Shown: positions 29,910 through 63,667 of the stretch, piece after piece
Layout: each line of letters starts with the position of its first letter
Numbering within the stretch: the first letter of the stretch is position 1
Assembly: GCA_964636125.1 (NCBI GenBank)
Contig: CAZWPX010000023.1
Location: 1,010 to 65,009, forward strand
Source: an uncultured Desulfobacterales bacterium
GTDB taxonomy: Bacteria; Desulfobacterota; Desulfobacteria; Desulfobacterales; CAJINA01
Length of the DNA: 64,000 nucleotides
Reading direction: 5' to 3'
The notes under the pieces: model-generated
The model's input: the letters and a program-made list of their open reading frames with translations, nothing else
What the model was told of the DNA's origin: nothing
The model's database searches: none
Made by a program: the position numbers and the translations under genes

Positions 29910-29921
29910 ATCTATTTTCTC

Positions 29922-30113: not shown

Positions 30114-30129
30114 TGCGATCCTCGCAAGC

Positions 30130-33628: not shown

Positions 33629-33660
33629 GGCACCTCCTCTTCTTTATGACGGCAACCGTT

Positions 33661-33827: not shown

Positions 33828-34223
33828 CTAATCTTCTTCCAACTGGGCCAGAATCTCATCCTCCTCCAGGGTGTGGTACTGCTTGTGCAGCTTGATAATC
33901 AATGCCAGAGCCACACCGAGGGTCGCCACGGCCACGACGATGGCCGTCAGCATCAGTACATGGGGCAGCGGGTTGGCATAATTCACCGCCTGAGCAGCAT
34001 GCGTTTCGATGCCATGTGCATGTTCAATAATCGGTAGCGTGGCTCTATGCTTGGCCCCGATGGAAATAAAAAAGAGGATGACCGCCGTTTGCAAAATGTT
34101 CATCCCGACGATTTTCTTTACCATGTTGTTCTTGGCAATCATGGCGTACAGCCCGACCATCATCAGGACAATGTACACCCAGTAATTCAGCTTGGCGGTA
34201 ATAATCGCAACCAGTTCATGCAT
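33828..34223 (-). CDS. mrpC: Mrp subunit C (NuoK-like)
   Basis: 131 aa. KKIVGMNILQTAVILFFISIG and PLPHVLMLTAIVVAVATLGVALALI are typical of MnhC/MrpC/MbhG. Confidence 0.85.
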   Translation of the reverse strand: MHELVAIITAKLNYWVYIVLMMVGLYAMIAKNNMVKKIVGMNILQTAVILFFISIGAKHRATLPIIEHAHGIETHAAQAVNYANPLPHVLMLTAIVVAVATLGVALALIIKLHKQYHTLEEDEILAQLEED

Positions 34224-34225
34224 AC

Positions 34226-45147: not shown

Positions 45148-46707
45148 CTATTCCTGATCGAGCACATTCCTCACCATTTTCAGTAGATCCTCCCCCAGAT
45201 AGGGTTTGGAAAGAAACCCCCGGGTCTGAGCTTCGATCTGCTCCCAGCTCAATGTCTCGGGTTTAGTGGCCGAGGTAAGAACCACCTTCACGCCTGGATC
45301 GATCTGCAGCAACTCCTGCAGGCATCTTTCGCCCCCCATATTCGGCATGATCAAATCGAGCAGGATCATATCGATCCGGTTTTTTTCCTCGCGGTACAGT
45401 TTCAGGGCGTCTACCCCGTCCTCCGCCGTCAAAACACTGTAGCCAGCCATTTCCAGGCGCCGTTGCCCAAATAGTCGCATGGACGCCACATCATCCACCA
45501 GCAGAATTGTTTCGCCGCCGGTTTGAACGACATTCGTTTTTTTCTTCTCTACCGCCTTCACAGATCGGGGCGCTGCCGGCAGGAAAATTTTGAACAGGGC
45601 CCCTTTCCCCAGGACGCTCTTGCAGGTGATGAGGCCGTCATGATTCTGTATAATGCCGTACACCATGGCCAGGCCCAGACCGGTACCCTTGTCCGCCCGT
45701 TTGGTGGTAAAAAAAGGATCGAAGATCTGTTCAAGGGTCTCTTTGGCCATGCCCTGGCCGGAGTCGGCCACGCTGATGCAAACATAGGCTCCCGGAACCA
45801 GGTTGGGCTGCGACTTGCAGTAATCCGGGGTGAGGGTGACACTGGCGGTCTGGATGATCAGCTTTCCGCCGTCCGGCATGGCATCCCTTGCGTTGTTGAA
45901 GAGATTCATGAGCACCTGACCGATCTGGCCGGCATCGGCAGCCACCGGGGGCAGCGCTTCCTCGAGATTCAGGATCACCTCCAACTCGCTGGCTATTCCG
46001 TTTTTCACGAGACCGTGGAGCTGACGGACCTGCTGATTCAGATCGATCAGTTTTTTGATGCTTTCCAGTTTCCGACTGTAAGAGAGCATCTGCTGCACGA
46101 TATCGACACCCCTCTGGCAGGCATCAAAGATTGTATTTAATTCAGGATAGCCGGGGTCGTCGTGGCTATGACGGATCATGAGAAGTTCGGTCGAGCCCTG
46201 GATGGCTGCAATCAAATTCTTGAAATCATGGGCGATGCCGCTGGCCAGGGTCCCCACAGCTTCCAGTTTCCGGGCTTGCTGGAGCCGTTTTTCGAGCTGC
46301 CTGCGCTCGTTCGTCAGGCGGACCGCCCGGAGCATGTACCGCACCCGCTGTACCAGGATCATCCATTCGATCGGTTTGGTGATGAAGTCGGTGGCGCCGG
46401 CTTCATAGGCCCGGCTGATCGATTCGACATCCTCCAGGGCCGTGACCATGACCACCGGGATTAAATTTCCGCCCGGCAATTCGCGGATCGCCCGGCAGGT
46501 ATCGTAGCCGTCCATCTCAGGCATCATCACATCCAGCAGCACAATCGCCGGCTTCAACCGCTTGACCGCCTCCAGGCCTTCGACGCCGTTCACAGCTTCA
46601 GACACCGAAAAGCCCGCCTGTTGTAAGGACACTCGGGCGACTTCGCGGAGAATGGTATCATCATCGACAATCAGGATCTGGGACCGGGATTCCTTTTTGG
46701 GGGCCAT
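45148..46707 (-). CDS. Hybrid histidine kinase: REC-HisKA-HATPase-REC
   Basis: The N-terminal receiver has ILIVDDD...[12 protein letters not shown]. The H-box is [18 protein letters not shown], the G-box is DSGQGM...[12 protein letters not shown], and the C-terminal receiver has ILLVDD...[12 protein letters not shown]. Confidence 0.9.
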
Positions 46708-47094: not shown

Positions 47095-47110
47095 TGGCAT
47101 GCACTTTGCT
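47095..47110 (+). promoter_or_regulatory. Putative sigma-54 (-24/-12) promoter upstream of the giant repeat protein
   Basis: TGGCATgcactTTGCT is a near-perfect match to TGGCAC-N5-TTGCW. It lies 80 nt upstream of the ATG at 47190, in a 480-bp AT-rich divergent region. Confidence 0.6.
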
Positions 47111-50100: not shown

Positions 50101-51311
50101 CCGGCACCAAGGTCATGACCGGCGCCGCGGTCAACGATGCGCCCACCGCGACGAACCTGAGTGCCCCGGAGAGCTACACCGAGGACACGGCGCTCAATCT
50201 GACCGACATCGTGGTCACTGATGTGGACAGTGCCACTGTCACGGTGACCCTGACCTTGTCGGATCCGGCGGCCGGCTCCCTGAGCACCGGCACATCCGGT
50301 GCGGTGACCTCGACCTTTGCGGCCGGGGTGTGGACCGCCTCGGGCGCCCTTGCCGATGTCAACACCCTGCTGGCCGGCGTCACCTTCACCCCAACCGGGG
50401 GCTACGCCGGTGACTTTACCATCGCCACAAGTGCGAACGACGGCACGGCACCGGTGGTGACGGGAGTAAAAAATGTGTCCCTGGCAGCCGCTGCCGATCC
50501 AACGCCGCCGACGCTCCCTGCGGAAGACAATGATCCAGATCCGGTAACTCCGCCCGAGCCCGATCCAGAGACACCTGAAGACGAATCCGCACCCGCGGAC
50601 GTCGCAGAAGAGGCTCCTGCCGAGGCCGAAGCCGAGGCCTTGAATGAAGATGATTCGGGTGATACCGTAACGGCGGTTCCACCGACAGCCGCCGGAGCCG
50701 TGTCTTCACAACAGCGGCTTGCCTCGAACACGCTGCGTGGATTTATACAACGGTCCCTCCGGGGCCTGAGCCTTGAACAGGTTGCGGAGATCGACCTCAA
50801 AGAACTCCGGGAAATGACGGCCGAGACCCAACCGGCCTGGTCTGTTGCCCAGACCCGGGCAGCATCAATGACCTTTGGTACCCGGCTGACTGATTTGGGC
50901 ATTCGGACAGTTCTCGCATTCGATTTCCTGGAAAACTCGCTGGACGGGCTCCAACAAGAAGCAGAGGAAGAGATCGCGCTCAACCAGGTGGTTGCAAGTT
51001 CCGCCATTGCCGTAACGACAGGCCTGTCCGTGGGGTATGTGGCCTGGCTGCTGCGAAGCGGCGTGCTGCTCAGTTCTTTGCTGTCTTCCATGCCGGCCTG
51101 GCGGATTCTGGATCCGTTGCCTGTGCTTGCAGGAAAACTGGACGATTTCGAGGAGACGGACGAAGAATCCCTGGAGACCATCATCGAGCGGCCGTCGCCG
51201 CCTTCCGCCGATGACGACCCGAATGATGCATCTGCCTCTGTGGACGTTGCGGACGAAGTCGTGAAGGACGTGAAAGACGTGAAAGACGTGAAAGACGTGA
51301 AGGAAACGTAA
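47190..51311 (+). CDS. Giant repeat protein: N-terminal LEPR-XLL motif, DUF4347, cadherin-like repeats, acidic/Pro-rich linker, C-terminal TM segment
   Basis: FEALEPRLLLSA lies at 47328..47363. The DUF4347-like block runs ELVVIDGGIQD...DAVHFVSHG...LLFYGCDLAAGEEGQALL...GADVTASDDDTGH..LGGDWDLEY. Repeats of ~120 aa are bounded by VNDAPT. The segment SAIAVTTGLSVGYVAWLLRSGVLLSSLLSSMPAW is hydrophobic. No RTX GGxGxD array was seen. Confidence 0.9.
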   Translation: MNKWFKTALKTMCDRLGAGTRGVPRPVPGKAPNAGPRQDSFPAGIHFEALEPRLLLSASGDGIVAGVAVQAAPSSEHAAIEAENFQFNQLNQSLSTNLLHTTEIKESGLSQGNSTPQGSNPVSHPADATTTNNENQLVSSIPAESVDILTSIESHVLDTVLERSELVVIDGGIQDTDTLINDLLADRDDGRTIEVVIIDPEQDGFEQVSDLLATRQGLDAVHFVSHGTDRGVKLGDTWLYPGNLDDYAGDIAGWKDSLAAEADLLFYGCDLAAGEEGQALLASLGELTGADVTASDDDTGHALLGGDWDLEYRAGDLETAVAFSAELQHHWDGLLAPPTLDLDVNNSSGAGGNDYQLTYTEGDVATAIADTDSDVADADSTTFDHVTLSVSGLLDGNAEEMVLDGDTFALSTAVAGQNTSGLKYTVTVTAVPGSGTATMTITKQGGGTFTEVETEALIEEIKYRHADDNPSDGNRTIDMTVNDGSVDSAAARTTINVDPVNDAPTLTVFSAPIKTSSQDETVTITFGDLTTQGDEADVDGTVDAFIVKAVSSGTLLIGASKGSAAAWAAGTNDTISGLDKGFWTPVSGATGTLNAFTMVVEDNSGAESATPVQAQVSVTANNVPTLTAFAAPIDTTAEDTQVDITFAELVAQGDEADVDGTVDGFVVKAVTSGTLLIGTDAGSATIWAAGSNDTIDAANNAYWTPDSDANGTLNAFTAVALDNSGAESATPVQAQITVTAVNDAPTATNLSAPESYTEDTALNLTDIVVTDVDSATVTVTLTLSDPAAGSLSTGTSGAVTSTFAAGVWTASGALADVNTLLAGVTFTPAINYNSNFNIATGVSDGAAPAITGTKVMTGAAVNDAPTATNLSAPESYTEDTALNLTDIVVTDVDSATVTVTLTLSDPAAGSLSTGTSGAVTSTFAAGVWTASGALADVNTLLAGVTFTPAINYNSNFNIATGVSDGAAPAITGTKVMTGAAVNDAPTATNLSAPESYTEDTALNLTDIVVTDVDSATVTVTLTLSDPAAGSLSTGTSGAVTSTFAAGVWTASGALADVNTLLAGVTFTPTGGYAGDFTIATSANDGTAPVVTGVKNVSLAAAADPTPPTLPAEDNDPDPVTPPEPDPETPEDESAPADVAEEAPAEAEAEALNEDDSGDTVTAVPPTAAGAVSSQQRLASNTLRGFIQRSLRGLSLEQVAEIDLKELREMTAETQPAWSVAQTRAASMTFGTRLTDLGIRTVLAFDFLENSLDGLQQEAEEEIALNQVVASSAIAVTTGLSVGYVAWLLRSGVLLSSLLSSMPAWRILDPLPVLAGKLDDFEETDEESLETIIERPSPPSADDDPNDASASVDVADEVVKDVKDVKDVKDVKET
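49405..50392 (+). repeat. 2.7 copies of a 100%-identical 360-bp (120-aa) tandem repeat
   Basis: A line-by-line comparison shows 49405-49764 equals 49765-50124, which equals 50125-50392 (a partial third unit). Two older, diverged ~120-aa units precede it (~48700-49400). Confidence 0.95.
51261..51305 (+). repeat. 9-bp microsatellite (gtgaaRgac)x5 encoding (VKD)n at the C-terminus of the giant protein
   Basis: gtgaaggac gtgaaagac gtgaaagac gtgaaagac gtgaaggaa. Confidence 0.9.
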
Positions 51312-51314
51312 TTT

Positions 51315-54239
51315 ATGGGCAGGTTGAACGTCAAATTCCGCGTGGTTGCAGGCATGGTCGGTCTGGTGATCAGCCTCATCTTTCTGGCCCTCTATCTCGG
51401 CATCATTCCGGACCGGATCGGCGCGGTGCGAAAAGGACGCACGTCCCTCGCCGAAGCCCTTGCGGTACACAGCGCGGCCCTGGTGATGACGTCCGACTTT
51501 CAGCGCCTGAAAGCCGATCTGGACCTGATTTCAAAAAGAAATCCCGGTCTGCTTTCCCTTGCCCTGCGACGGGCAGATGGCCGCAGCACGATTTCGATCG
51601 GCGATCACGACGGCCAGTGGCAACCCATGCAAGAAAACTTCACGAAAGCCAACCAGATCCGGGTCCCCATATCCGACGGCAAGCAAAACTGGGGGCAGCT
51701 GGAGCTGCGATTCAATCCCCTGCAGGACCAGGGGCTCAAGGGAATCCTCCAAACACCATGGGTCCAGATCGGGCTGTTTCTCGGGATAGGATGCTTTGTC
51801 ACCTTTTACCTGTATCTGGGCAGAGTGCTTCGCCAACTGGACCCCTCCCAGGCCATCCCCGGCAGGGTGCGCGCCGCCCTGGACACCATGGCAGAGGGGT
51901 TGCTGGTCGTTGACCCGAAGGAACAAATCGTGCTCGCCAACAAGTCTTTCGCCGACCTGTTTCAAAGATCACCGGATAAGTTTCTGGGTCACAAGGCCGG
52001 AGAACTGCCCTGGATCGACACGGAGGGGAATAAGATAGAAAAAGAAAACCGCCCGTGGATCCAGGCCCTGAAACAGGGGAAGCTTCAGAGGAAGCAAATG
52101 TTGCGGCTGCAGGTTTCGGCCGACGAGTGGCGGACCTTCAATGTCAACTGCGCGCCGGTATTGGGTTCTGCGGAAAAGCCTGCGGGGGTACTCATCAGCT
52201 TCGACGATGTAACCCAACTCGAGAAAAAAGAGATCGAACTTCGCAAATCCAAGGAAGAAGCCGAAACCGCCAACCAGGCAAAGAGTGTGTTCCTGGCCAG
52301 CATGAGCCACGAAATCCGCACACCCATGAATTCCATTCTCGGTTTCACGGAGATCCTCAAGCGCGGCTATGCCCGCAGCAAAGAAGAGACCCGCCGACAC
52401 CTCAATACCATTCATTCCAGCGGGAAAAACCTGCTGGCCCTGATCAATGACATTCTGGACCTGTCGAAAGTAGAGTCCGGCCGCATTGAGGTGGAAAAAA
52501 CCTGGGACGAGCCCCATCGGATTGCCCAGGAGGTCCTTAAGACTCTGAAAGTCCAATCGGAAGAAAAAGGACTTTATCTCCGATTCAATGCGGAGAGTGC
52601 GCTGCCGCAAAAAATCGAGACCGATCCGACGCGTTTCCGGCAGATTATTTTCAACCTGGTGGGAAACGCCATCAAGTTTACGGAAACAGGCGGTGTGACG
52701 GTCGGCCTGCGCTTTAAGAACAACCGCAGAAGGCCCCTTTTGATTGTCGACATCACCGACACCGGCATTGGAATCCCGAGTGAGAAGATCGGCAGTATTT
52801 TCGACCCCTTCACCCAGGCGGATTCTTCGATAACCCGCCATTTCGGCGGAACGGGTCTCGGCCTTTCCATCAGTCGAAAATTTGCCCGACTGCTGGGCGG
52901 AGATATCCGGGTATCCAGTCAGCCGGATAAGGGCAGCCGGTTCAGGGTTATCCTGGCTACGGGAGACACGACCTCGATTCCTTTTCTCCAACCCGAGGAA
53001 GTGGCCTTGACCCTGGAAGAGACCGCTAAGGCCAAACCTGACCGGTGGCGGCTGAACAGGTCACGCGTCCTGGTGGTGGAAGACGGCGTTGAAACCCGTG
53101 AACTCCTCCGGCTGTTGCTCGTCCAGGCGGGAGTAGACGTGTACGAGGCGGAAAACGGGCTGGAGGGTGTCAGAAAAACCACCACCGAACCCTACGACGT
53201 CATCCTGATGGATGTAAACATGCCGGTCATGGACGGCTTTGCCGCGGCCGGGAAAATGCGGCAGAACGGGGTGAAGTCACCGATCATCGCCATGACCGCC
53301 AACGCCATGAAAGGCTCTGAGCAGGAATGTCTGGCGGCTGGATACTCGGGGTACCTCCCCAAGCCCATCGATATCGACAAGCTCATGCAGATGATGGCGG
53401 ATCTCGTGGGCGGAGACCAGGTCAAGGAAATGGACGATGCGTCCCCCGGCATTCCCGCAATGCCGGAAATCGCTTCCGCGGAAAAGCAAGCAGCACCGCC
53501 GCATCCCCTCGTATCCAGCCTGCCGATCAGCGACCCGGAGTTTCAGAAAATTATTATCCGATTTGAATCCCAGCTTCGCGACAAGCTGAAATCCGCGGTC
53601 CGGGCCCGGGAGCGGGGTGACCTTGCCGAATCGGCTGCCTTCGCTCACTGGCTCAAGGGAGCGGGTGGTACCGTGGGCTTCGCTGAATTTACCGAACCGG
53701 CCCGACAACTTGAACAGCTGGTAAATGAAGGGGCCGATGTATCTGAAATGACCGCGGCATGGAAAGCTATTCGCCGGCTGGCCATCCGCCTTGCTGACAC
53801 TATAGCTGACCTGGCGATATCTGCGGCTACCGGGACCGGAGCAGCAGCATCGCCGACTCCGTCGGAAGCCCCTTCCTCTGCCCACACCGCAGGCACCGCT
53901 GTGACACCTCTGGTTTCCCGCTACGCAGAGCTCCCGGAATTTCAGCCGATTATTCACCATTTCATCGAAACGCTCGATGAAAACCTGTCAAAAATGGAAC
54001 TGGCCTATGTGCAGGAAGATTGGAAACAGCTGGAATCCCTGTCGCACTGGTTGAAAGGGTCAGGTGGTACGGTGGGTTTTGATGCCTTCACAAAACCTGC
54101 AGCGGAGCTCGAAAAATTCGCCAAGGCGCAACAGGCGGACCAGGCCGGAGGAATGCTGGATAAGCTAAAGCGGCTGAAAAACGCAGCCCTGCACCCGGAT
54201 GCAGGTGGACACGGCACAGAGCCGGCATCAATCCTTTAA
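51315..54239 (+). CDS. Hybrid sensor kinase: TM-periplasmic loop-TM, PAS, HisKA, HATPase, REC, 2x HPt
   Basis: It starts 3 nt after the giant gene's stop. The H-box is LASMSHEIRTPMNSILGF, the G-boxes are DTGIGI and GTGLGLSISRKF, and the receiver is VLVVEDG...ILMDVNMPVMDG. Two HPt motifs are present: HWLKGAGGTVGF and HWLKGSGGTVGF. Confidence 0.9.
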   Translation: MGRLNVKFRVVAGMVGLVISLIFLALYLGIIPDRIGAVRKGRTSLAEALAVHSAALVMTSDFQRLKADLDLISKRNPGLLSLALRRADGRSTISIGDHDGQWQPMQENFTKANQIRVPISDGKQNWGQLELRFNPLQDQGLKGILQTPWVQIGLFLGIGCFVTFYLYLGRVLRQLDPSQAIPGRVRAALDTMAEGLLVVDPKEQIVLANKSFADLFQRSPDKFLGHKAGELPWIDTEGNKIEKENRPWIQALKQGKLQRKQMLRLQVSADEWRTFNVNCAPVLGSAEKPAGVLISFDDVTQLEKKEIELRKSKEEAETANQAKSVFLASMSHEIRTPMNSILGFTEILKRGYARSKEETRRHLNTIHSSGKNLLALINDILDLSKVESGRIEVEKTWDEPHRIAQEVLKTLKVQSEEKGLYLRFNAESALPQKIETDPTRFRQIIFNLVGNAIKFTETGGVTVGLRFKNNRRRPLLIVDITDTGIGIPSEKIGSIFDPFTQADSSITRHFGGTGLGLSISRKFARLLGGDIRVSSQPDKGSRFRVILATGDTTSIPFLQPEEVALTLEETAKAKPDRWRLNRSRVLVVEDGVETRELLRLLLVQAGVDVYEAENGLEGVRKTTTEPYDVILMDVNMPVMDGFAAAGKMRQNGVKSPIIAMTANAMKGSEQECLAAGYSGYLPKPIDIDKLMQMMADLVGGDQVKEMDDASPGIPAMPEIASAEKQAAPPHPLVSSLPISDPEFQKIIIRFESQLRDKLKSAVRARERGDLAESAAFAHWLKGAGGTVGFAEFTEPARQLEQLVNEGADVSEMTAAWKAIRRLAIRLADTIADLAISAATGTGAAASPTPSEAPSSAHTAGTAVTPLVSRYAELPEFQPIIHHFIETLDENLSKMELAYVQEDWKQLESLSHWLKGSGGTVGFDAFTKPAAELEKFAKAQQADQAGGMLDKLKRLKNAALHPDAGGHGTEPASIL

Positions 54240-54634
54240 CTATGACGGATTCGAAATCCCGCCTCATCCAGTCGGCATCAATACAGTCGCTGCTTGATGC
54301 AAAAATTATGTCTGCAGTGATTTCTCTGGGAAAAAATCTCGGTATGTTGACCGTTGCCGAGGGGCATTGTGCAGTATGCCGATCTCGAGCACCGAACTTG
54401 AGCTGCTCTTTCACAGCTCGACTCACCAACGACGTGAGCGCGTTCCAGAGGATGGTCGTCCCGAAAAAGATAGGCCGGGTCATCTCGCCCCATAGAGAGT
54501 CTTCTCCCGGTCCACTGAACATGATGATTTTTTCACCGGCAGGCGTTCCCGGGCTGGCCGTATGTTTTTATTATTTATGAAATCAAAAGTGGTATTGTTG
54601 GACAAATGACCTAAAATATTATAAAAGTTGACTC

Positions 54635-55489
54635 ATGATTGCCAAATTCAAATCAAGCCTGTTTCTGATAGCTGTCATCGGGCTCCTGGCTGTCAGCCCC
54701 GCCGTCTCCCATTCGCTGGAAGTTCAGGCGGTAACCATTCCCAGCGCGGACGTCACGCTTTCCTTTGTGGTTTCCGGAAAAATCGCAGAAATTCTCGTCA
54801 AAGAAGGCGACAGTGTGAAAAAGGGTGCCCTGCTGGCTGCGTTGCACGATGATCCTGAACGAATTCAAACCGAGCAATTGAAGGTTCAGGCCGCGGACAT
54901 GACCCGTATCCTGTCGGCAAAAGCGGAACTGGCCCAGAAAATAGTGGACCTGGAAAAGCTCGATGCGGCCAGGAAAAAGGGTGCGGTCAGCGACTGGGAA
55001 GTCGCACATATGAAGCTGAGCGTTCGCATGGCGAAGCTGGCGCTCCAGGCGGCGACAATCGAACATGAGCAATCTCAGCGCCAGTACTCCCAGGCAGTCC
55101 AACAGCTCGAGCGCATGCGCATCGTGTCCCCGATTCCGGGGCGCGTGGAAAAGGTCTCCATTGAGGCCGGAGAAGGGATTGAAAAACTCGGACCGGTGGT
55201 TCAACTGGTCAGGACCGATCCGCTCTGGCTCGATGTCCCGGTCCCCCTGCCCCAGGCAAAGCAGCTGGCCATGGGGCAACGGGCCGCGGTCCGGTTTCCG
55301 GGTGATCCAACCGGTAAATCAACGGATGGTCGGATTGTCTACATCTCGTCCGTCGCAGATGCGGCCAGTGACACCCTGCGGGTCCGTATCGAAGTGGGCA
55401 ATCCTTCCGATCGTCCGGCAGGAGAGCGGGTGACCGTTGGCTTTCCGCTAATTCAAACCGGCAAGGTTGGGGACACTTCCCAAAATTGA
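54635..55489 (+). CDS. HlyD/RND-type periplasmic adaptor (membrane fusion protein 1)
   Basis: The N-terminal signal/anchor is SLFLIAVIGLLAV. It has a lipoyl-like half (VSGKIAEILVKEGDSVKKGALLAAL), a coiled-coil hairpin, IVSPIPGRVEKVSIEAGE and a beta-barrel tail. Confidence 0.85.
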   Translation: MIAKFKSSLFLIAVIGLLAVSPAVSHSLEVQAVTIPSADVTLSFVVSGKIAEILVKEGDSVKKGALLAALHDDPERIQTEQLKVQAADMTRILSAKAELAQKIVDLEKLDAARKKGAVSDWEVAHMKLSVRMAKLALQAATIEHEQSQRQYSQAVQQLERMRIVSPIPGRVEKVSIEAGEGIEKLGPVVQLVRTDPLWLDVPVPLPQAKQLAMGQRAAVRFPGDPTGKSTDGRIVYISSVADAASDTLRVRIEVGNPSDRPAGERVTVGFPLIQTGKVGDTSQN

Positions 55490-55494
55490 AGACG

Positions 55495-57312
55495 ATGAAC
55501 GAACTGCAGCAAACCGAAGGGCCTTTCACCAGGGTTCTCACTCGGGTACTTGCCAGGCAGTGCCGACAGGTGCGGGCGGCCGGCGGCGCAATGCTGCAAC
55601 CCGTCGAAGAGAAACGCCTGCTCCTCCTTGCGGCTTTTCCGCAATCAGACACCCAAAACGGGCTTCCCAAATGGCTCTCCCCTGCCCTGAACACCTGCCT
55701 GGAGGTCCTGTCCAGCGGAAAGGCGGCGATTGTGCCGGAATCCCCGCAGCAGGGGGCCGGCGGACAGACCGGGAGCCGGATCCTTGTCATTCCGATTCAA
55801 AAAAAGAACAATGTCCGGGCAGTGGCTGCATTTCTCGTCCCCGAGCAAAACCCCCGGAGGCTGGCGGTTATAGAAAAGAGGCTGGCCACCACCTCCTTTC
55901 TACTGAACCACTGCGAACTGCAACTGACCCTGGAAAAACACCGGAAGGCGATCGATCGCCTCTCCCTCGCGCTGGGTGTCATTTCAGTGTGCAACCAATC
56001 CAGCCACTTCACGAGCACCGCCATGGCCTTGTGCAACGAGCTTGCCGAAAAATTAAGATGCCACCGTGTCAGCCTCGGCGTTCTGGAAGGCCGCTACGTC
56101 CGCGTCCGCGCCATGAGCCGGACCGACACGTTTCACCGGGAGATGAAGCTGACCCAGGACATCGAGGCAGCCATGGAAGAGTGTCTGGACCAGGACCTGG
56201 AAATCATTCGCCCGGCGGCCGCAGATGCCGTCTACGTCAGCCGCGCAGCCGGGCAGCTTTCCCAGCGGCATGGGCCATCCGCCGTGCTCTGCGTGCCGGT
56301 CCGGATAAACGGCGGCGTGGCCGCCGTCATCACCCTGGAGCGATCTTCGGAGCGGCCGTTTACAAGCCTGGAAGAGATCGAGGCCGTCAGGCTGGCTTGC
56401 GACCTGTGCGCCCCGCGGCTGATGGACCTGCGGGAGAATGCGCGGTGGTTCGGCGCCCGCATGGCCGCAGCGGTTCGAAAAAAAGCAGGGACGATTTTTG
56501 GACCGCAACACACGGGATTGAAGCTGGGGGCCGTCCTCATTTTTCTCATCGCAGTGTTTCTTGTGTTCGCCAGGGGGGAGTACCGCGTCGGCGCCCCGTT
56601 TATCTTCGAGGCCTCGATTCAGCAAGCCGTCGTGGCCCCGTTTGACTCCTATATCAAAAACGTTCACGTGGATCCCAGCGACGCGGTAATCGCTGATCAA
56701 ACCCTATTGGGCGAGCTGGAGACTTCCGATTTGAGACTCGAACAGGCCGCGCTCAAGGCACAGCAGCAGGGGCATCGGAAACAACGTGCAGCCTCGATGC
56801 GCGACGGAAAAACGGCCGAAGCCCAGATGGCCGAGGCTCAGATTGACAAGCTGGCGGCTGAAATCCGCCTCATCGAAGGCCATATCAAACAGGCCGCACT
56901 GGTGGCGCCGATTTCCGGGCGACTCGTTTCGGAAGATCTCAAACGGCGTCTGGGAGCGCCGGTGGAAGCGGGCGACATTCTCTTCGAAATCGCCCGCATC
57001 GAATTACTGAGGGCCGAGCTTTACGTGCCGGAAGATTCGATTGCGCTGGTGAATATCGGTCAGGCCGGTGAATTGGCCGCCGTCGGCCATCCGGATCGGA
57101 AAATTCGGTTTGTGGTGGAACGCATCACGCCCCTCGCCGAGGTAGTCAACCAGGTCAATTCGTTCCGGGTGCGGGCCCGTTTGCACGACAGGCCGAAATG
57201 GATGCGGCCGGGCATGGAAGGCCTTGCCCGGATCGATGTAGGGAAAAAACGCTATGTGTGGATCTGGACCCATCGGTTGACCGACTGGCTCAGGATGAAG
57301 CTTTGGCTTTAA
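55495..57312 (+). CDS. GAF-GAF-TM-HlyD fusion (membrane fusion protein 2 with a cytoplasmic sensor module)
   Basis: About 330 cytoplasmic aa carry two GAF-like units (…ALCNELAEKLRCHRVSLGVLEG…VLCVPVRINGGVAAVITLER…). One TM follows (LGAVLIFLIAVFLVFA), then a HlyD coiled coil and VAPISGRLVSEDL. A TTG at 55486 overlapping the upstream stop is an alternative start. Confidence 0.85.
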   Translation: MNELQQTEGPFTRVLTRVLARQCRQVRAAGGAMLQPVEEKRLLLLAAFPQSDTQNGLPKWLSPALNTCLEVLSSGKAAIVPESPQQGAGGQTGSRILVIPIQKKNNVRAVAAFLVPEQNPRRLAVIEKRLATTSFLLNHCELQLTLEKHRKAIDRLSLALGVISVCNQSSHFTSTAMALCNELAEKLRCHRVSLGVLEGRYVRVRAMSRTDTFHREMKLTQDIEAAMEECLDQDLEIIRPAAADAVYVSRAAGQLSQRHGPSAVLCVPVRINGGVAAVITLERSSERPFTSLEEIEAVRLACDLCAPRLMDLRENARWFGARMAAAVRKKAGTIFGPQHTGLKLGAVLIFLIAVFLVFARGEYRVGAPFIFEASIQQAVVAPFDSYIKNVHVDPSDAVIADQTLLGELETSDLRLEQAALKAQQQGHRKQRAASMRDGKTAEAQMAEAQIDKLAAEIRLIEGHIKQAALVAPISGRLVSEDLKRRLGAPVEAGDILFEIARIELLRAELYVPEDSIALVNIGQAGELAAVGHPDRKIRFVVERITPLAEVVNQVNSFRVRARLHDRPKWMRPGMEGLARIDVGKKRYVWIWTHRLTDWLRMKLWL

Positions 57313-57382
57313 CTCAATTGCCGTCAGGCTCCGCAAAAGACCTGTTCAATAAAACTAAGAATGCACCACTTTTAAAGGTAGG

Positions 57383-59566
57383 TTGACGGTGACCGCAACA
57401 CGCCCGACATTTATCGAATCCTGGTACCGCGTGGCCAATTTGTGCCCGAAGCTGCTCCCGGCGGTGAACGTGCACCGCCAGCATTTCCGGGGCGTCCAGT
57501 GGTACGTTCTCCAGAACCCGGCCAACAATGAATATTTCCGTCTCAGCCACGGGGCCTATCACTTCGCCGCGATGCTCGACGGTCGCCTCACCGTGGACCG
57601 GGTATGGCGGACGTGCATGGACGCATTCGGCGACGAGGCGCCGACCCAGGGCGAAGTCGTCGATCTGCTTACCAGGCTCTATGCGGCCAACCTGCTCCAG
57701 GGCGATGTGGCCCCGGACGTGGAAGCGCTGTTTCAGCGGCATCAGAAGCGCGCGTGGCGGGAAATTAAAGGATTTTTTCGCAATTTCCTTTTCATCCGGA
57801 TTCCCCTGTGGGATCCGGATCGATTCCTGGAAAGATGGGCCCCTGTTTTCGGAAAATTCTTCACGGTCCATGGCCTTTTCCTCTGGGTCGGTATCATGTT
57901 AGCCGGGTTGTGGGCGGTCGGCGGACACTTCGGAGACCTGACCCGGCAGGCCGCGGGTGTTTTGAACCCGAAAAACCTGCCCCTGCTGTACGCCGCGCTC
58001 GTCATCGTCAAAGTGTTTCACGAAATGGCCCATGCGTTTGCCTGCAAACAGTTCGGGATGCGGGCGGGAACCGGGGGCGAGGTGCACCGGATGGGGGTGA
58101 CGTTCCTCGTATTCGCACCGCTGCCCTACGTAGAGGCGTCCAGTGCCTGGGCCCTTAGGGACAAATGGCAGCGGATCGTCGTCGGTGCCGCCGGCATGCT
58201 GGTGGAACTGGCGATCGCTGCGATTGCAGGCATTCTCTGGGTCCGGACCGCCGAAGGGGCCACCGTACATGCCATCGCCTACAACGTGATGTTTGTCGCC
58301 AGTGTGTCCACGCTGCTCTTCAACGGAAACCCGTTCCTGCGATACGATGCCTATTACATCCTGCTGGATCTCCTCGAAATTCCCAACCTCGATTCCCGGT
58401 CCAAAGCCTACCTTGCCTTTCTGGCCAAACGTAATCTGTGGAACCTCAAACAGGTCCATGATCCCAGCCACACGCCGGGAGAACGGGGGTGGCTCGTATT
58501 TTACGCCCTGACCGCCATGGGTATCCGTGTGGCCGTGGCAATAGCGATTGTGCTGTTTCTCGGCAGCCAATTTTTTCTGATCGGGGCGGTGGTTGCGGTC
58601 TTCATGGCTGCAACCTGGATTTTCCTTCCCCTGGGAAACTTGCTGCGCTATCTGGCCATCAGCCCCGAGCTTGCCCGGATCAGACCCCGGGCGGTTGTCA
58701 CCAGCGCAGCCGCAGCCGCGGTCCTTCTCGGGGCCGTCGGCCTCGTTCCCATGCCGGAGCGCTTTCGCATCGAGGGTGTGGTGGAGCCGATCCGCTACGC
58801 GGTCATCCACATGAAAGCCGACGGATTCGTCGACGGGTTCCTCGATTCCGGGAAAAAGACCGGTCCGAACGGCCTCCGCCTGCTTACCGCGGTCTCCCCG
58901 ATTCTGGAAACCCGGCGCGATCAGCTGCATGCCGAACGCCGCCGGCTCCAGGTGCGGCGAAAACACGCCCAGGCCCGTGAGACGGCGGCGGTACAGATTA
59001 TCGCAGAAAAAATCGCCGCCCTGGAAGAAAAAATCGCACGCAACCGCCGGGAGATGGCGGATCTGAACCTGCAAGCACCCATTCAGGGCACCTGGGTGGC
59101 CCCGAACATTGACCGGCTCCGGGGGGTGTACCTGAAGCGGGGTCGACATGTCGGGGTGGTCGCAGATCTGGACGCCCTGAGAATCCGAGCCGTTGCCGGC
59201 CAGACAGTGGCGGCAGAGCTTATTCGGGATGCCGGATCCGCTGTCGAGATCAGAGTCAAAGGCAACCCGAGTGCGACCTACGACGGCCGAATCGAGACGA
59301 TCATTCCGGCGGGACAGGAACGGCTGCCGTCTGCCGCCCTCGGCTATGCAGCGGGGGGCTCGACCCAAACGGCCCTGGATGACCCGGAGGGCCGGCAGGC
59401 CTCCGAACCGTTTTTTGAAATCCTGGTGGTTCCGGATATTCCCGAAGGAAGGCGGCTGATGCCGGGGCAGAGCACGGTGCTGCGGTTTGACACCGCCGCG
59501 AAACCACTGCTGGTACAGGCATGGAAAACCATTTTGCAACTTTTTCAGAGGAGGTTTAAAGCCTAA
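57383..59566 (+). CDS. PqqD/RRE-like domain + M50 (site-2-protease-like) membrane metalloprotease + HlyD adaptor, single polypeptide
   Basis: The N-terminus (WYVLQNPANNEYFRLSHGAYHFAAMLDGRLTVDRVWRTCMDAFGDEAPTQGEVVDLLTRLYAANLL) fits the PqqD-like peptide-binding pattern. HEMAH lies at 58019..58033 within a polytopic region. The C-terminal coiled coil plus LQAPIQGTWVAP is HlyD-like. The start is TTG 57383 or GTG 57389. Confidence 0.85.
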   Translation: MTVTATRPTFIESWYRVANLCPKLLPAVNVHRQHFRGVQWYVLQNPANNEYFRLSHGAYHFAAMLDGRLTVDRVWRTCMDAFGDEAPTQGEVVDLLTRLYAANLLQGDVAPDVEALFQRHQKRAWREIKGFFRNFLFIRIPLWDPDRFLERWAPVFGKFFTVHGLFLWVGIMLAGLWAVGGHFGDLTRQAAGVLNPKNLPLLYAALVIVKVFHEMAHAFACKQFGMRAGTGGEVHRMGVTFLVFAPLPYVEASSAWALRDKWQRIVVGAAGMLVELAIAAIAGILWVRTAEGATVHAIAYNVMFVASVSTLLFNGNPFLRYDAYYILLDLLEIPNLDSRSKAYLAFLAKRNLWNLKQVHDPSHTPGERGWLVFYALTAMGIRVAVAIAIVLFLGSQFFLIGAVVAVFMAATWIFLPLGNLLRYLAISPELARIRPRAVVTSAAAAAVLLGAVGLVPMPERFRIEGVVEPIRYAVIHMKADGFVDGFLDSGKKTGPNGLRLLTAVSPILETRRDQLHAERRRLQVRRKHAQARETAAVQIIAEKIAALEEKIARNRREMADLNLQAPIQGTWVAPNIDRLRGVYLKRGRHVGVVADLDALRIRAVAGQTVAAELIRDAGSAVEIRVKGNPSATYDGRIETIIPAGQERLPSAALGYAAGGSTQTALDDPEGRQASEPFFEILVVPDIPEGRRLMPGQSTVLRFDTAAKPLLVQAWKTILQLFQRRFKA

Positions 59567-59567
59567 C

Positions 59568-61556
59568 GTGATCCAGGTACCGAGCATAAGCTGGCGGATG
59601 CTTTCTCAGGAGCCCTCCCGGGTGGAAATTCCCCGAGGCCTGGACAGAGCGTGGCATCGGGCCGCCGGTGCCGCCGGGAGTGTTTCCCTTCGAACAAAAA
59701 GATTTATCCGCCGGGCGGAGGGTATCGTTTCCATGGACAAGCTCTTTGCGCACCTATCCGACAAAGAGTTGAGTAAAATAATCCCGCCCCTGCGGGATCG
59801 ATTTCGCCTTGGCCGGGACACAGCCGAAGATCAAAACCGGGCCTTTGCCATCGTCCGGGAAGTCGCCGGGAGAACGATCGGCATGCGCCCCTTTACGGTC
59901 CAAGTGGCCTGCGGGCTGGCAATGGAATCCGGCTGCATTGCGGAAATGGCCACCGGTGAGGGGAAAACCCTGGCCGCAACCATGCCCGCCGTTCTGGCGG
60001 GCTGGCGCAACCGGGGATGCCACGTGGTGACGGCCAATGAATACCTGGCCGCGCGGGATGCCGGTTGGATGGCGCCTGTTTACCGGTTCTGCGGATTGAC
60101 GGTCGGATGGGTGGCAAACACCATGGGCCCGGAGCAACGGCGGCGGGCCTACGACGCTCACATCACTTACTGCACAAGCAAGGAGATCGCAGCCGATTTC
60201 CTGCGCGACCGTCTTACCCTGGGCCCCATCCGGGGACTTTCTGCAGCGCTTCTGGCGAAACTGGCCGGACGCGGCCCCGACCGGATCAACGGCCTGGTTC
60301 AAAGCAGCCTGGGGTGTGCCATTATAGACGAAGCCGACGCGGTGCTCGTGGACGAAGCGGTCACACCGCTGATCATTTCAGGTTCCGGGCAGAACCCGGA
60401 CCATGCACAAGCCATTGCCGAAGCCGCTCGTCTGGCCGCGAAGCTTGCGCCGGAAAAGGACTACCGGGTAGATCGGCGATATCACGAAATCACCCTGACC
60501 GCAGCCGGAGAGGCCCGGATGGCCGGGATGGCCGAATCCCTTGGCGGCCTTTGGAGAATTTCCCGGCACCGTGAAGAACTCGTCGTTCAAGCGATCACTG
60601 CCCGGGAATTTTTTGTTCGGGACAAGCAGTATGTCGTCGACAATCAGACGGTGGTCATCATCGATGAATTCTCAGGGCGGCTCATGCCCGACAGGACCTG
60701 GCGTGACGGTCTCCACCAGGCGATCGAGGCAAAAGAGGATCTCGAGATTCATCTGCCCAGGGAAACCCTGGCCCGGATCAGCTTCCAGCGTTTTTTTCGT
60801 CTTTACGGGAAGCTGTCCGGAATGACGGGAACCGCGGCAGAGATTCGAAATGAATTCTGGCAAATTTACCGTCTTCCGGTGGTCGTCATCCCGCCCCGGC
60901 GCGCCTGTCAACGGTCCCTGCGACCGGATCGCATATTTTCAAATAAAGATGCGAAATGGAGGGCGGTCATCGATGAAATCCGCAGCGCGCACGAAATCGG
61001 GCGGCCGGTCCTGGTGGGGACCCGCAGCGTGGCAGCCAGCGAGTCTCTTGGCCGGCAGTTAACCGTCGAAAAGCTGGATCACGAGGTCCTCAATGCCGTC
61101 CGGCATGACGCCGAGGCGAGGATCATCGCCGACGCCGGCCGAAGCGGGCGCATTACCGTCGCCACGAACATGGCCGGGAGAGGAACCGATATCCGCCTGG
61201 GCCCCAATGTAGCCGAGCTGGGGGGACTGCATGTGGTCGCCACCGAGCTTCACGAAACCCGCCGGATCGACCGGCAATTATACGGCCGGTGCGCCCGCCA
61301 GGGCGATCCCGGCAGCGCCCGGGCTTTTGTGAGCCTGGATGACGAATTGCTGCAGCAGCACGCACCTCCGGTCTGGAAAAAAACGGGGTCCGGCACTGGA
61401 GACGGAGGCCGGGAAATCACTTCTGTCTTTTCCCGCCGACGGATCGAACGCGCTCAGCGCCGTGCTGAGCGGGCCGCTTTTCACCGGCGCAGGGAAGTGC
61501 TTCACACAGACCACTGGCTTGACGAACACCTGGGATTTGCGCTTAAAGAAATCTAG
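59568..61556 (+). CDS. SecA-like ATPase, C-terminally truncated paralogue (NBD1-PPXD-NBD2 + first scaffold helix only)
   Basis: It is collinear with E. coli SecA. EMATGEGKTLAA is the Walker A motif (59955-69). Other matching motifs are VVTANEYLAARD, IIDEADAVLVDEAVTPLIISG, RTWRDGLHQAIEAKE, FFRLYGKLSGMTGTA, ATNMAGRGTDI, GGLHVVATELHETRRIDRQLYGRCARQGDPGS. It ends ~40 aa into the scaffold helix (about 650-660 aa, against ~900 for SecA). Start is GTG 59568 or ATG 59598; the track start at 59487 overlaps the previous gene. Confidence 0.9.
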   Translation: MIQVPSISWRMLSQEPSRVEIPRGLDRAWHRAAGAAGSVSLRTKRFIRRAEGIVSMDKLFAHLSDKELSKIIPPLRDRFRLGRDTAEDQNRAFAIVREVAGRTIGMRPFTVQVACGLAMESGCIAEMATGEGKTLAATMPAVLAGWRNRGCHVVTANEYLAARDAGWMAPVYRFCGLTVGWVANTMGPEQRRRAYDAHITYCTSKEIAADFLRDRLTLGPIRGLSAALLAKLAGRGPDRINGLVQSSLGCAIIDEADAVLVDEAVTPLIISGSGQNPDHAQAIAEAARLAAKLAPEKDYRVDRRYHEITLTAAGEARMAGMAESLGGLWRISRHREELVVQAITAREFFVRDKQYVVDNQTVVIIDEFSGRLMPDRTWRDGLHQAIEAKEDLEIHLPRETLARISFQRFFRLYGKLSGMTGTAAEIRNEFWQIYRLPVVVIPPRRACQRSLRPDRIFSNKDAKWRAVIDEIRSAHEIGRPVLVGTRSVAASESLGRQLTVEKLDHEVLNAVRHDAEARIIADAGRSGRITVATNMAGRGTDIRLGPNVAELGGLHVVATELHETRRIDRQLYGRCARQGDPGSARAFVSLDDELLQQHAPPVWKKTGSGTGDGGREITSVFSRRRIERAQRRAERAAFHRRREVLHTDHWLDEHLGFALKEI

Positions 61557-61600
61557 ATTTTAAACACTCACTTTATGGCCCTATTGAAAGGTCGGAGATC

Positions 61601-63667
61601 ATGATTAAACGCTATGGTATATGGGTTGCCGCTGTTCTTTCGATTTTCATCACCATTTCCGTTGCCGGGGGGGAGACCTGCCAACCGATCCTGAACATCC
61701 TGAAAAGCCAGGAATGGAAGCATCGCGACACCAGGGGGGAGATCCATCTCGGCAAGGTCGCGACCCTGCTATATCCCGCCTATACGGTCGCAGCAACCGA
61801 CCGTTACCGGCCGCTCCTCGAGCAGTTGTCCGCGGCCCTGAAAACGCCGGTCAGAAAAGAATACCGGGTCGTTTTGAAGGGATATACAGATTCCCTCGGT
61901 TCACTGGTGGTCAACCAGCGCATCTCCCTGGAACGCGCCCAGGACCTGAAAAAATTGCTGACATCGGATCCATCCATGGCCCTCGACGCCAAAAGAATCC
62001 AAGTAGAGGGCCTTGGGGAGGCCGACCCGGTGGCCTCCAACCAGACGCTTGAGGGGCGGAACCAAAATCGCCGTGTTGAAATTCACATTTACGGCAATGT
62101 GGGAGAGGACGTACGAACGGTCGCTACGGCACCGCCCGCCCCCGTCCCTGTAGCCATGCAAAAGGGAAAACCGGTTATCGCAGGTGCTTTATCGGATAAA
62201 TCTACGTTGCCGTTGTCAATACCGGGGGCACAGACACCACCGGGGCCGGAGACCGTTCGCCTGTCCCTTTTCGATGCCATCCGCCATGGATTGGAAAAAA
62301 ACCTGGAGATTCGGGTGGTCGCCTTTACCCCGCAGCAGGCGCAAGAGGGCATTGCGGATGCGGAATCAGTCTTTGATCCCGAAATTTTCACGGAGGGAAC
62401 CTTCCAGCGGGATCCGAATCTGCAATCGAGCGTCACCCGGGTCGTCATGGAAGATGACAGCCTCCTTCAGACGGGAATTCGAAAGCCCCTTGGCACCGGC
62501 GGCAGCGTGTCCGGCGCCCTGGCAATGAATTACGGGAATCTGATCAACGCCGAGTTCGATCGAACCTACCGGTACACCTTCGCCCCGACCTTTGAAATCA
62601 GGCAACCGCTGCTGAAAAATATCGGCGGCCGGGAAGAAAAGGCCGCCATCAAGATCGCCAACCATCAAATGGGCATTTCCAAAGAGGCGTTTCGTCGGAA
62701 GGTAATCGACATTGCCACCCGGATCTCCAGAGCCTACTGGCGGCTCTACCTGCACCGGGACTATGTGTTGATCGACCGGCAGAATTTCGAAATGGCCGAG
62801 GAGGTCTACCGCCGGGAAACCGTCCGGGTCAAAGAAGGCCTTTCGCAACAGCTTGATGTCGCGCGGGCCCGAAGCAATGCCGAAAGCCGGCGGGGAAACC
62901 TGATTAAATCGAAAGAGCGGTTAAAGGTGGGCACGGACCAGTTAAAGCTCTTGATCAACTGGTCGAATCTGAACATCGACTCGCAGGTAAATATCTTACC
63001 CATCGATGAACCGAGCGCAGAGCCCCTTGATGTGAGCGAAGAAGAAGTCGTTGAAAAAGCGTTCCAGCATCGCCCGGAACTGTTGCAGGCCAAACAGCGG
63101 GTGAGTATCAGTAAGGTCGAAGAAGACCTTTCGCAGCATCTGAAACTGCCGACCCTGGATGTATTCGGGCGGTATGCCGTCAGCGGGTACGGCAGGGAGT
63201 TCTCGGACGCGGTTGACGATACGTCCGTCAACGATGAAGATGCCTGGGCCGCCGGCCTGAACTTTGAATATCCGATCGGCAATCGATCGGTAGTGGCCAA
63301 GGCCCGCATGAAAACGCTCGCGCGCCGTCAGTCGGAAGAACAGGTCGCCCGCCTGCGAAACCAGATCAAACAGGAAATCAAGGAGGTGCTCTCTGCGATT
63401 GTTTATGCCAAAGGTAGAATCGAGTCCACTCAAATAGCGATGGAATCCGCCCGGAGTGTGGTCGAAGGTGAATTCGTACGGTTCGAAATCGGTCAGACGA
63501 CCAATGTGGAACTTCTGCGGGCGCAGGACTCGCTGGCCGCCACCAGCCGCAGTTTCATACAAGCGATTGTGGATTACAATATTGCACTGGCCGAACTGAA
63601 AAGGGTCAAGGGCGAGCTGCACGAGGGGTTGTCGATCGATGAACTCGAAAAGCAAGCCGGAAACTGA
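61601..63667 (+). CDS. OmpA-like peptidoglycan-binding domain fused to a TolC-family outer-membrane channel
   Basis: It has a signal peptide. The OmpA_C pattern is VVLKGYTDSLGSLVVNQRISLERAQDL...GLGEADPVASNQTLEGRNQNRRVEIHIY. Two OEP repeats follow (LSLFDAIRHGLEKNLEI... and ...IVDYNIALAELKRVKGEL). Confidence 0.9.
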   Translation: MIKRYGIWVAAVLSIFITISVAGGETCQPILNILKSQEWKHRDTRGEIHLGKVATLLYPAYTVAATDRYRPLLEQLSAALKTPVRKEYRVVLKGYTDSLGSLVVNQRISLERAQDLKKLLTSDPSMALDAKRIQVEGLGEADPVASNQTLEGRNQNRRVEIHIYGNVGEDVRTVATAPPAPVPVAMQKGKPVIAGALSDKSTLPLSIPGAQTPPGPETVRLSLFDAIRHGLEKNLEIRVVAFTPQQAQEGIADAESVFDPEIFTEGTFQRDPNLQSSVTRVVMEDDSLLQTGIRKPLGTGGSVSGALAMNYGNLINAEFDRTYRYTFAPTFEIRQPLLKNIGGREEKAAIKIANHQMGISKEAFRRKVIDIATRISRAYWRLYLHRDYVLIDRQNFEMAEEVYRRETVRVKEGLSQQLDVARARSNAESRRGNLIKSKERLKVGTDQLKLLINWSNLNIDSQVNILPIDEPSAEPLDVSEEEVVEKAFQHRPELLQAKQRVSISKVEEDLSQHLKLPTLDVFGRYAVSGYGREFSDAVDDTSVNDEDAWAAGLNFEYPIGNRSVVAKARMKTLARRQSEEQVARLRNQIKQEIKEVLSAIVYAKGRIESTQIAMESARSVVEGEFVRFEIGQTTNVELLRAQDSLAATSRSFIQAIVDYNIALAELKRVKGELHEGLSIDELEKQAGN

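Follow-up and report, generated by a model that had tools for sequence, protein, structure and literature searches.

A periplasmic adaptor with a predicted cytoplasmic tandem-GAF region in a putative SecA-like ATPase secretion module of an uncultured Desulfobacterales bacterium

The adaptor gene and its product

The gene considered here lies at 55495-57312 on the forward strand of a 64,000-nucleotide stretch of DNA (the window; contig CAZWPX010000023.1 of assembly GCA_964636125.1) from an uncultured Desulfobacterales bacterium. It is an intact open reading frame (ORF) with an ATG start, encoding 605 amino acids followed by a stop codon, and its product is almost certainly a periplasmic adaptor of the MacA/HlyD type, anchored in the inner membrane, with a tandem-GAF N-terminus of about 339 residues in the cytoplasm. 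From the N- to the C-terminus the protein consists of a divergent GAF domain (GAF-1), a long helix, a further GAF domain (GAF-2), a second helix, one transmembrane (TM) helix and a MacA-like periplasmic adaptor (Table 1). A chance reading frame was excluded because 730+ protein clusters show similarity to the protein over its full length, at least 495 species-representative genomes carry a relative, and the N-terminal 338 residues match 916 representatives at E<=1e-10 (50% clustering). Relatives with 86-89% identity are proteins of Desulfobacterales metagenome-assembled genomes (MAGs). Full-length proteins with this N-terminal module are nearly all about 600-650 residues long and the ones checked outside this range still had HlyD domains, so that the tandem GAF appears to be tied to the adaptor.

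A second possible start codon, TTG at 55486, lies three codons upstream and would add the residues MKT. Several homologues have the N-terminus MKTM that this start would give, some beginning MKTMSELQ, and the gene therefore starts at either 55495 or 55486. The TTG shares bases with the stop codon of the gene before it (TTGA), which suggests that the two genes are translationally coupled.

The first ~339 residues were assigned to the cytoplasm because the adaptor part must be periplasmic, an N-terminal signal sequence is absent and there is a single TM helix. A preliminary description, made from the sequence alone, had proposed an adaptor with a cytoplasmic N-terminus of about 330 residues in which two GAF-like units precede a single TM helix. 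Both points were borne out, the length by the position of the TM helix (residues 340-358), which leaves about 339 residues in the cytoplasm, and the two units by Pfam (unit 2), an AlphaFold2 (AF2) model and Foldseek.

The periplasmic part matched, at residues 376-574, the Pfam families HlyD_3 with 54.5 bits (cut-off 22.2) and HlyD_D23 with 53.3 bits (cut-off 30). NCBIfam holds no family-specific model matching the protein; the adaptor subfamilies were reached only below threshold, the best being TIGR01730 with 62.9 bits against a cut-off of 94.9, and the type I HlyD model TIGR01843 was absent among the NCBIfam matches. The full-length AF2 model had a predicted local distance difference test score (pLDDT) of 82.9, and Foldseek with its periplasmic part gave MacA as the best match (9qgy_G at 1.1e-14, 3fpp, 5nik), followed by EmrA. 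A search of PDB with the family profiles found no solved structure of the family; it returned MacA-type matches C-terminally (4dk1 by sequence, 4.4e-5) and weak, generic GAF matches for GAF-2. The TM anchor on the N-terminal side and the OEP/TolC gene in the same array (61601-63667) are as expected of a periplasmic adaptor.

MacA, the adaptor of the MacAB-TolC tripartite pump of the ABC type, shares with the window protein the lipoyl, alpha-hairpin and beta-barrel parts and the N-terminal TM anchor. However, MacA has few cytoplasmic residues and an ABC transporter as its partner, whereas the window adaptor has the 339-residue tandem GAF and, presumably, a SecA-like motor. Its hairpin is also shorter, and in place of a membrane-proximal domain, none being evident in the AF2 secondary structure, it has a conserved C-terminal helix. 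The residues W589, W598, R600, M601, K602, L603 and W604 of this helix are nearly invariant, and the helix is kept even in distant and in single-GAF relatives. The two other adaptors encoded in the array have no counterpart of it. It could be a helix at the membrane surface or a contact between subunits. Some relatives carry insertions in the periplasmic part; in P0123 (746 residues), for example, CBM_5_12 carbohydrate-binding modules lie between the TM helix and the HlyD domains.

Table 1. Features of the adaptor gene and of the array in which it lies (window coordinates).
Feature	Position	Strand	Basis
sigma-54-type -24/-12 element TGGCATGCACTTTGCT	47095..47110	+	~80 nt upstream of the array's first gene
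Candidate substrate, LEPR-XLL/DUF4347/cadherin-like protein, 1373 aa	47190..51311	+	Pfam DUF4347 1.6e-52; NCBIfam LEPR-XLL
Hybrid histidine kinase (2 TM, PAS, HisKA, HATPase, REC, Hpt)	51315..54239	+	Pfam
112-aa ORF without family match	54242..54580	+	Similarity in closest relative L001 patchy
Short HlyD-type adaptor, 284 aa, N-terminal anchor, first gene of core module	54635..55489	+	Pfam, NCBIfam, hydropathy
GAF-GAF-TM-adaptor gene	55495..57312	+	ORF, translation, Pfam GAF and HlyD_3/HlyD_D23, 730+ full-length homologues
GAF-1, divergent, weakly conserved (aa 10-115)	55522..55839	+	AF2, Foldseek, sub-threshold GAF_2
Connecting long helix between GAF units (aa 120-166)	55852..55992	+	AF2 H120-130, H132-166, pLDDT ~90
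GAF-2, highly conserved (aa 172-284)	56008..56346	+	Pfam GAF/GAF_2 above cut-off, AF2, conservation 0.72
GAF-2-to-membrane helix, also C-terminal helix of GAF-2 (aa 292-333)	56368..56493	+	AF2 H292-333/335; R299, L300, W318, G320 conserved
Single TM helix (aa 340-358)	56512..56568	+	Hydropathy peak 2.62 at aa 341-359; AF2 H340-358
Periplasmic adaptor: lipoyl halves, short alpha-hairpin (H411-436, H440-466), beta-barrel	56572..57252	+	Pfam, AF2, Foldseek
Conserved C-terminal helix W-x-W-T-H-R-L-x-x-W-L-R-M-K-L-W	57253..57306	+	AF2 H587-604
PqqD/RRE-like, M50-type intramembrane metalloprotease and C-terminal HlyD-type adaptor, 727 aa	57383..59566	+	Pfam, NCBIfam, motif
Truncated SecA-like ATPase	59568..61556	+	SecA_DEAD, PPXD, P-loop domains; conserved position
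OmpA-like domain and TolC-family outer-membrane channel fusion, 688 aa	61601..63667	+	Pfam OmpA, OEP x2; NCBIfam TolC
aa, amino acids; nt, nucleotides; H, helix.

Fold and conservation of the cytoplasmic region

Profile searches, which had been named beforehand as the check on the GAF assignment, settled it for unit 2 only. When the whole protein was scanned with Pfam, unit 2 (residues 176-306) matched GAF with 33.6 bits (cut-off 22.4) and GAF_2 with 34.6 bits (cut-off 28.6), and unit 1 was not reported. Scanned alone (residues 8-150), unit 1 reached GAF_2 with E=0.0027 and 18.3 bits, below the cut-off of 28.6, and a profile search of PDB sequences with it gave nothing relevant. Among 23 diverse relatives, unit 1 of two matched GAF_3, the best with E=1.1e-6, and unit 1 of P0126 and of P0137 also matched GAF_3.

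For unit 1 the support comes from the fold. The AF2 model of residues 1-338, built on 76 homologues, had a mean pLDDT of 85.9 and a predicted template modelling score (pTM) of 0.70. Both alpha/beta units have the same order of elements: helix (H) 10-25, strands (E) 30-38 and 41-48, H59-74, E78-81, E95-103 and E106-115 in unit 1, and H172-186, E191-198, E201-207, H218-233, E237-239, H250-258, E262-271 and E274-284 in unit 2. The units are separated by a 47-residue helix (120-166), and another helix (292-335) follows unit 2. With this model as the query, Foldseek gave 366 matches in PDB at E<=1e-3, the top ones being solved tandem GAFs which matched over the whole query: CyaB2 (1ykd, 7.6e-11, 374 columns), PDE2A (3ibj), PDE6 and PDE5. 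A match to a single GAF, 3p01, had a target TM-score (TMt) of 0.69. The tandem matches showed 11-15% identity, and a difference in how the two GAF units are oriented to each other kept the TM-scores down to about 0.4. On the predicted structure, each unit has an antiparallel sheet flanked by N- and C-terminal helices and matches solved GAFs. We conclude that the protein does have a double GAF as far as the predicted fold is concerned, unit 2 being a GAF by sequence as well and unit 1 a very divergent GAF. An internal duplication was also considered and rejected; when the profiles of the two units were aligned with hhalign, no significant similarity was found (probability 1.5%), so that GAF-1 and GAF-2 are not a recent duplication.

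Since the best structural matches, CyaB2, PDE2A, PDE5 and PDE6, are tandem GAFs that bind cyclic nucleotides, the cytoplasmic region could be read as a sensor of cyclic AMP or cyclic GMP of the PDE/CyaB type, and the layout of GAF-A, long helix, GAF-B, helix and output is the same in these proteins and in ours. However, 11-15% identity and TM-scores of about 0.4 indicate a shared fold only. The cyclic-nucleotide motif NKFDE, searched as the regular expression N-K-x(5-24)-F-x3-D-E, was absent in 75 of the 76 family members, including the window protein. The matches to solved GAFs by sequence were limited to the generic beta4-beta5-alpha5 core. The units are also minimal and without the usual lid helices, and the output is a TM helix and a periplasmic adaptor instead of an enzyme. 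The earlier suggestion that a cyclic nucleotide gates the conduit thus found no support, and judged by its sequence the adaptor does not appear to be a sensor of this type; of all the readings considered here, we regard this one as the most improbable.

Conservation was assessed by column identity in the 76 full-length homologues (45-89% identity) and in a wider set of 218 sequences which included more distant representatives. The mean column identity in the 76 homologues was 0.50 for GAF-1, 0.72 for GAF-2 and 0.73 for the periplasmic part. Nearly all invariant residues of the cytoplasmic region lie in GAF-2 (N181, C189, R191, G195, S208, E224, M227, E228, E229, D232, Q233, P240, R250, G260, P268, R270, E282 and R283), and R299 and L300 are invariant in the helix that follows it. 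This set as a whole remained almost invariant in the 218 sequences. The polar or charged residues N181, R191, E224, E228, E229, D232, Q233, R250, R270, E282 and R283 of GAF-2, together with R299, stayed invariant or nearly so in the 218 sequences. Apparently complete relatives of 476-525 residues begin within the inter-GAF helix and consist of GAF-2 and the adaptor only. Because these single-GAF relatives keep exactly GAF-2, sequence comparison makes GAF-2 the universal unit and GAF-1 an accessory one. The higher conservation of GAF-2, its invariant charged residues and its retention in the single-GAF relatives point to GAF-2 as the functional unit, and it is the only credible binding unit.

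Two explanations other than ligand or partner binding were weighed against these data. The GAF domains might be a scaffold without any signal, serving to dimerise or space the adaptor and to hold it in place under the membrane. Dimerisation is typical of tandem GAFs, and GAF-1 is weakly conserved and dispensable. The extreme conservation across phyla of GAF-2 charged residues of the surface type, however, exceeds what a dimer interface usually needs, and we consider a pure scaffold unlikely. The second explanation is a redox or metal sensor built from cysteines. Six cysteine columns (C23, C180, C189, C230 and C302-x-x-C305) are 86-100% conserved in the 76 sequences, and four of the six cysteines lie on the GAF-2 helices alpha1, alpha2 and alpha5. 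In the 218 sequences, though, the cysteines were lost one by one, with A, V, G or S in their place, and all six were kept in only 89. Such losses indicate buried positions of the core rather than a joint set of ligands. A metal or redox site was therefore rejected as the leading idea, and the chance that the cysteines act as a sensor seems very small.

The surrounding putative secretion module

Loci of this kind were described by comparative genomics in silico by Kamneva, Poudel and Ward (PLoS One 2015, PMC4452313) as 'secondary SecA_DEAD' loci, in which SecA_DEAD is encoded together with Peptidase_M50/HlyD, HlyD/biotin-lipoyl and GAF/HlyD proteins and sometimes an OEP protein, and the GAF-HlyD protein was proposed to be sensory or regulatory. 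The window genes at 54635-63667 correspond to this definition, with GAF and HlyD next to Peptidase_M50(-HlyD), SecA_DEAD and a further HlyD, and published GAF/HlyD proteins such as META1p2402 of Methylobacterium extorquens AM1 are, by their description, alike in architecture, neighbours, gene order and phyla. Both the GAF-HlyD architecture and the sensory idea are thus already published in silico, and the window protein is a typical member of a widespread, catalogued family. In our literature search no experimental follow-up of the module was found beyond this paper.

To compare gene order, the module proteins were searched with tblastn against 80 related loci. The order GAF-HlyD, M50-HlyD, SecA-like was found in essentially every locus long enough to show it, the loci coming from Desulfobacterales, Planctomycetota and MAGs labelled Anaerolineales or Acidobacteria. 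The short HlyD and TolC genes are usually near this core, and a TolC homologue is present in most related loci; the short HlyD lies upstream in loci of the delta-proteobacterial type, and downstream, inverted and next to TolC in those of the planctomycete type. The only conserved neighbours of the GAF adaptor across the loci are the four other genes of the machine. The adaptor belongs to the invariant core of this module, which occurs in several phyla, and its gene always has the M50-HlyD gene immediately downstream. The adaptor had been seen in the preliminary description as another layer of control added at this locus, a view that did not hold, since the same gene occurs in the same order in essentially all loci of sufficient length. 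The module almost certainly comprises three different types of adaptor (short HlyD, GAF-GAF-HlyD and RRE/M50-protease-HlyD), a truncated SecA-like ATPase and a TolC-family channel. Pairwise BLASTP showed almost no similarity among the three adaptor parts, so that a recent common origin was rejected and they are taken as old, distinct paralogues.

In the window, the genes from 47190 to 63667 form an array on one strand with very short gaps. The protein encoded directly downstream of the GAF adaptor matched Peptidase_M50, HlyD_D23 and PqqD, all below the Pfam cut-offs, and the NCBIfam model daptide_HExxH over residues 23-413 (2.2e-41, 142.3 bits, below the 300-bit cut-off). It has five TM segments and an intact HExxH motif (HEMAH, residue 213), and in sequence its M50 half resembles leader peptidases of ribosomally synthesized and post-translationally modified peptides (RiPPs). 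The next ORF, that of the SecA-like ATPase, opens mechanically at 59487, overlapping the end of the M50-HlyD gene by 80 nucleotides; the start is likely the GTG at 59568 behind a GGAGG, giving 662 residues. The protein keeps the Walker A motif MATGEGKT, the DEAD box and PPXD. It aligns to about the first 600 of the ~790-815 positions of the SecA models and is without the C-terminal third, which in SecA includes parts that dock on SecY. In the OmpA-TolC fusion the OmpA-like part, of the peptidoglycan-binding type, is N-terminal. This fusion is not universal; in many related loci the match to TolC starts only after the OmpA part.

At the head of the array lies a candidate substrate. It has a basic N-terminal leader, the motif LEPRLLLSA and cadherin-like repeats, and the protein matches the LEPR-XLL model NF012209 with 23.5 bits (cut-off 17). 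In 10 of the 80 related loci (L019, L023, L033, L038, L054, L058, L059, L061, L072 and L078) a large ORF next to the module was found with a short, mostly basic leader followed by LEPR(L/I/V)LL(S/N/T) at residues ~20-50, against roughly 0.4 such ORFs estimated by chance, and four of the five locus ORFs tested passed the NCBIfam cut-off. A hydrophobic signal of the Sec type was found neither in the window protein nor in the LEPR-XLL proteins of the related loci. Apart from the leader the proteins are unrelated, being DUF4347/cadherin-like, choice-of-anchor D, subtilase-like or Ig-like. DUF4347 was tried as a general marker of substrates and rejected; a jackhmmer search with the DUF4347 region through all ORFs of the 80 loci found L079 alone, so the common feature of the neighbouring candidate substrates is the LEPR-XLL leader and not DUF4347. 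The leader looks like the export signal of the module. No paper linking LEPR-XLL to the module was found in the literature search.

The hybrid histidine kinase follows the candidate substrate gene. Such a kinase was found mainly in loci of the Desulfobacterales type, upstream of the module. In a Phycisphaerales MAG (L079:16416-21741), as in the window (47190-54239), a DUF4347 gene is directly followed by a homologous hybrid kinase (45% identity), both next to the module, which suggests that the pair of DUF4347 substrate and kinase travels together. It is doubtful whether the 112-residue ORF, which separates the kinase gene from that of the short HlyD, is a true gene. Two more two-component proteins are encoded directly upstream of the array, a GAF-HisKA-HATPase-REC hybrid kinase (41264-43054, forward strand) and a REC-HisKA-HATPase-REC protein (45148-46707, reverse strand), the latter divergent from the promoter region of the operon.

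A sigma-54 promoter had also been mentioned in the preliminary description, and this remark received some support. The element TGGCATGCACTTTGCT is the sole exact match to TGGCAYN5TTGCW in the 64-kb window, where 0.15 are expected. Of the 80 loci, 12 from deltaproteobacterial relatives (L003, L004, L005, L008, L009, L012-L016, L018 and L028; e.g. L004:8897-8912) have the motif ahead of the short HlyD gene, about two chance matches being estimated for all 80 loci; its distance from the gene is ~75-95 nucleotides in ten of them, ~120 in L005 and ~313 in L003. In the window the element precedes the LEPR-XLL/DUF4347 gene instead of the short HlyD gene. Directly upstream of the latter (54635) no such site was found, only a degenerate TGGCC...TTTTT. 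No sigma-54 activator was present among the window ORFs scanned. The flanking kinase and the sigma-54-type site, both named in the preliminary description alongside the adaptor in the control of the locus, do belong to the picture, the kinase lying in the same array and the exact site upstream of the operon.

The published description reported one GAF in GAF/HlyD proteins and named no substrates (PMC4452313). In the window, a LEPR-XLL/DUF4347 gene, a hybrid kinase gene and a sigma-54-type promoter accompany the module, and its adaptor has a second, divergent GAF upstream of the published one. This predicted second GAF is a new detail, and so are the accessory nature of GAF-1, the invariant residues of GAF-2, the link to LEPR-XLL and the putative sigma-54-type promoter conserved in deltaproteobacterial relatives.

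Elsewhere in the window, positions 3978-22344 hold a polyunsaturated fatty acid/polyketide synthase cluster of the Pfa type, with a KS-AT-ACPs-KR-DH protein of 2363 residues, a KS-KS-FabA-type DH protein of 2398 residues and a PfaD-like enoyl reductase. Antiporter-like membrane subunits of the Mrp/Mbh type, four Proton_antipo_M proteins and MnhB/MbhE, are encoded on the reverse strand at 26389-35056.

Possible role of the cytoplasmic region

In our preferred reading, to which we give a probability of about one half, the tandem GAF serves an exporter as a coupling or receptor module on the cytoplasmic side, and what it binds is more likely to be a machine component or a substrate leader than a free metabolite. 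The module would likely export large surface proteins with a short, basic N-terminal leader ending in LEPR-XLL, the 1373-residue DUF4347/cadherin-like protein at the head of the operon being one such candidate. In this scheme the leader would be recognised, and probably cleaved, by the RRE/M50 part, energy for translocation would come from the SecA-like ATPase, and the three adaptors would form the connection to TolC. As for the tandem GAF, it would probably be a dimer held by its long helices. GAF-2 would bind a conserved cytoplasmic partner, and the state of binding would pass through the helix after GAF-2 and the TM helix to the periplasmic adaptor, thereby controlling its assembly with TolC.

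Such coupling would parallel what is established for a known adaptor. E. coli HlyD is TM-anchored, and its N-terminal domain of ~60 residues in the cytoplasm helps to engage the substrate and to recruit TolC in type I secretion, a role reportedly worked out by Balakrishnan, Hughes and Koronakis in 2001. The parallel is one of function; the cytoplasmic domain of HlyD is not a GAF, and the signal for type I secretion is C-terminal, whereas the candidate signal of the window system is N-terminal.

Several points weigh against the coupling reading. The GAF fold is predominantly one for binding small molecules, as most characterised GAF domains do. The layout of GAF, helix, GAF, helix and output is that of ligand-regulated enzymes, and the GAF gene of M. 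extorquens AM1 was reported to be expressed with the other genes of its operon silent, which the authors took as a sign of a regulatory role (PMC4452313). In addition, protein binding by the GAF domains, the stoichiometry, the dimerisation, the contacts and the export of substrates are all matters that we infer.

A rival reading, which is the general form of the one in the preliminary description, is that GAF-2 or both GAFs bind a small cytoplasmic ligand other than a classical cyclic nucleotide. It might be an ion, a metabolite or some nucleotide second messenger, and its occupancy would gate assembly or opening of the conduit from inside the cell. The general habit of the fold speaks for such a ligand, as do the tandem arrangement with long helices leading into an output, which mirrors PDE2A and CyaB2, and the many invariant polar residues of GAF-2, which could line a pocket. 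The sensory role favoured in PMC4452313 and the expression pattern in M. extorquens also fit a regulator of this kind. Nevertheless, no ligand-specific motif was found, and GAF-2 is conserved over its whole length instead of at a few pocket positions. Ligand-binding GAFs build lid helices between beta3 and beta4. In the AF2 model this region is minimal: GAF-2 carries one short helix there (250-258), and GAF-1 has none, a low-confidence loop taking its place. No cyclase or other ligand-producing gene was recovered among the conserved neighbours, though no search was aimed at one. Gating by a small ligand is a serious alternative, but one we hold to be doubtful.

Returning to the coupling reading, a more specific form of it can be put forward only tentatively. 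The tandem-GAF adaptor might be the cytoplasmic signal receptor or gate of a distinct secretion system, made up of a truncated SecA-like motor, an RRE/M50 leader peptidase fused to an adaptor, two further adaptors and TolC, which takes proteins with a LEPR-XLL leader across both membranes in one step. Assembly of the tunnel would be licensed by GAF-2 once it has bound either the basic leader or the motor. If true, recognition of the substrate would be coupled to the TolC conduit in a new way.

Adaptors of tripartite exporters are usually seen as passive periplasmic bridges. Here, a full tandem GAF of the signalling type stands in the cytoplasm and is kept across phyla, in a machine which replaces the ABC transporter by a SecA-like ATPase and an intramembrane protease. 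The LEPR-XLL candidate substrates, the sigma-54-type promoter and the invariant residues of GAF-2 make the module approachable by experiment. Control of assembly by the GAF region, if it occurs, would clearly exemplify a TolC conduit governed from the inside out, and would open a way into a widespread secretion module, with a relative of the adaptor in at least 495 species genomes.

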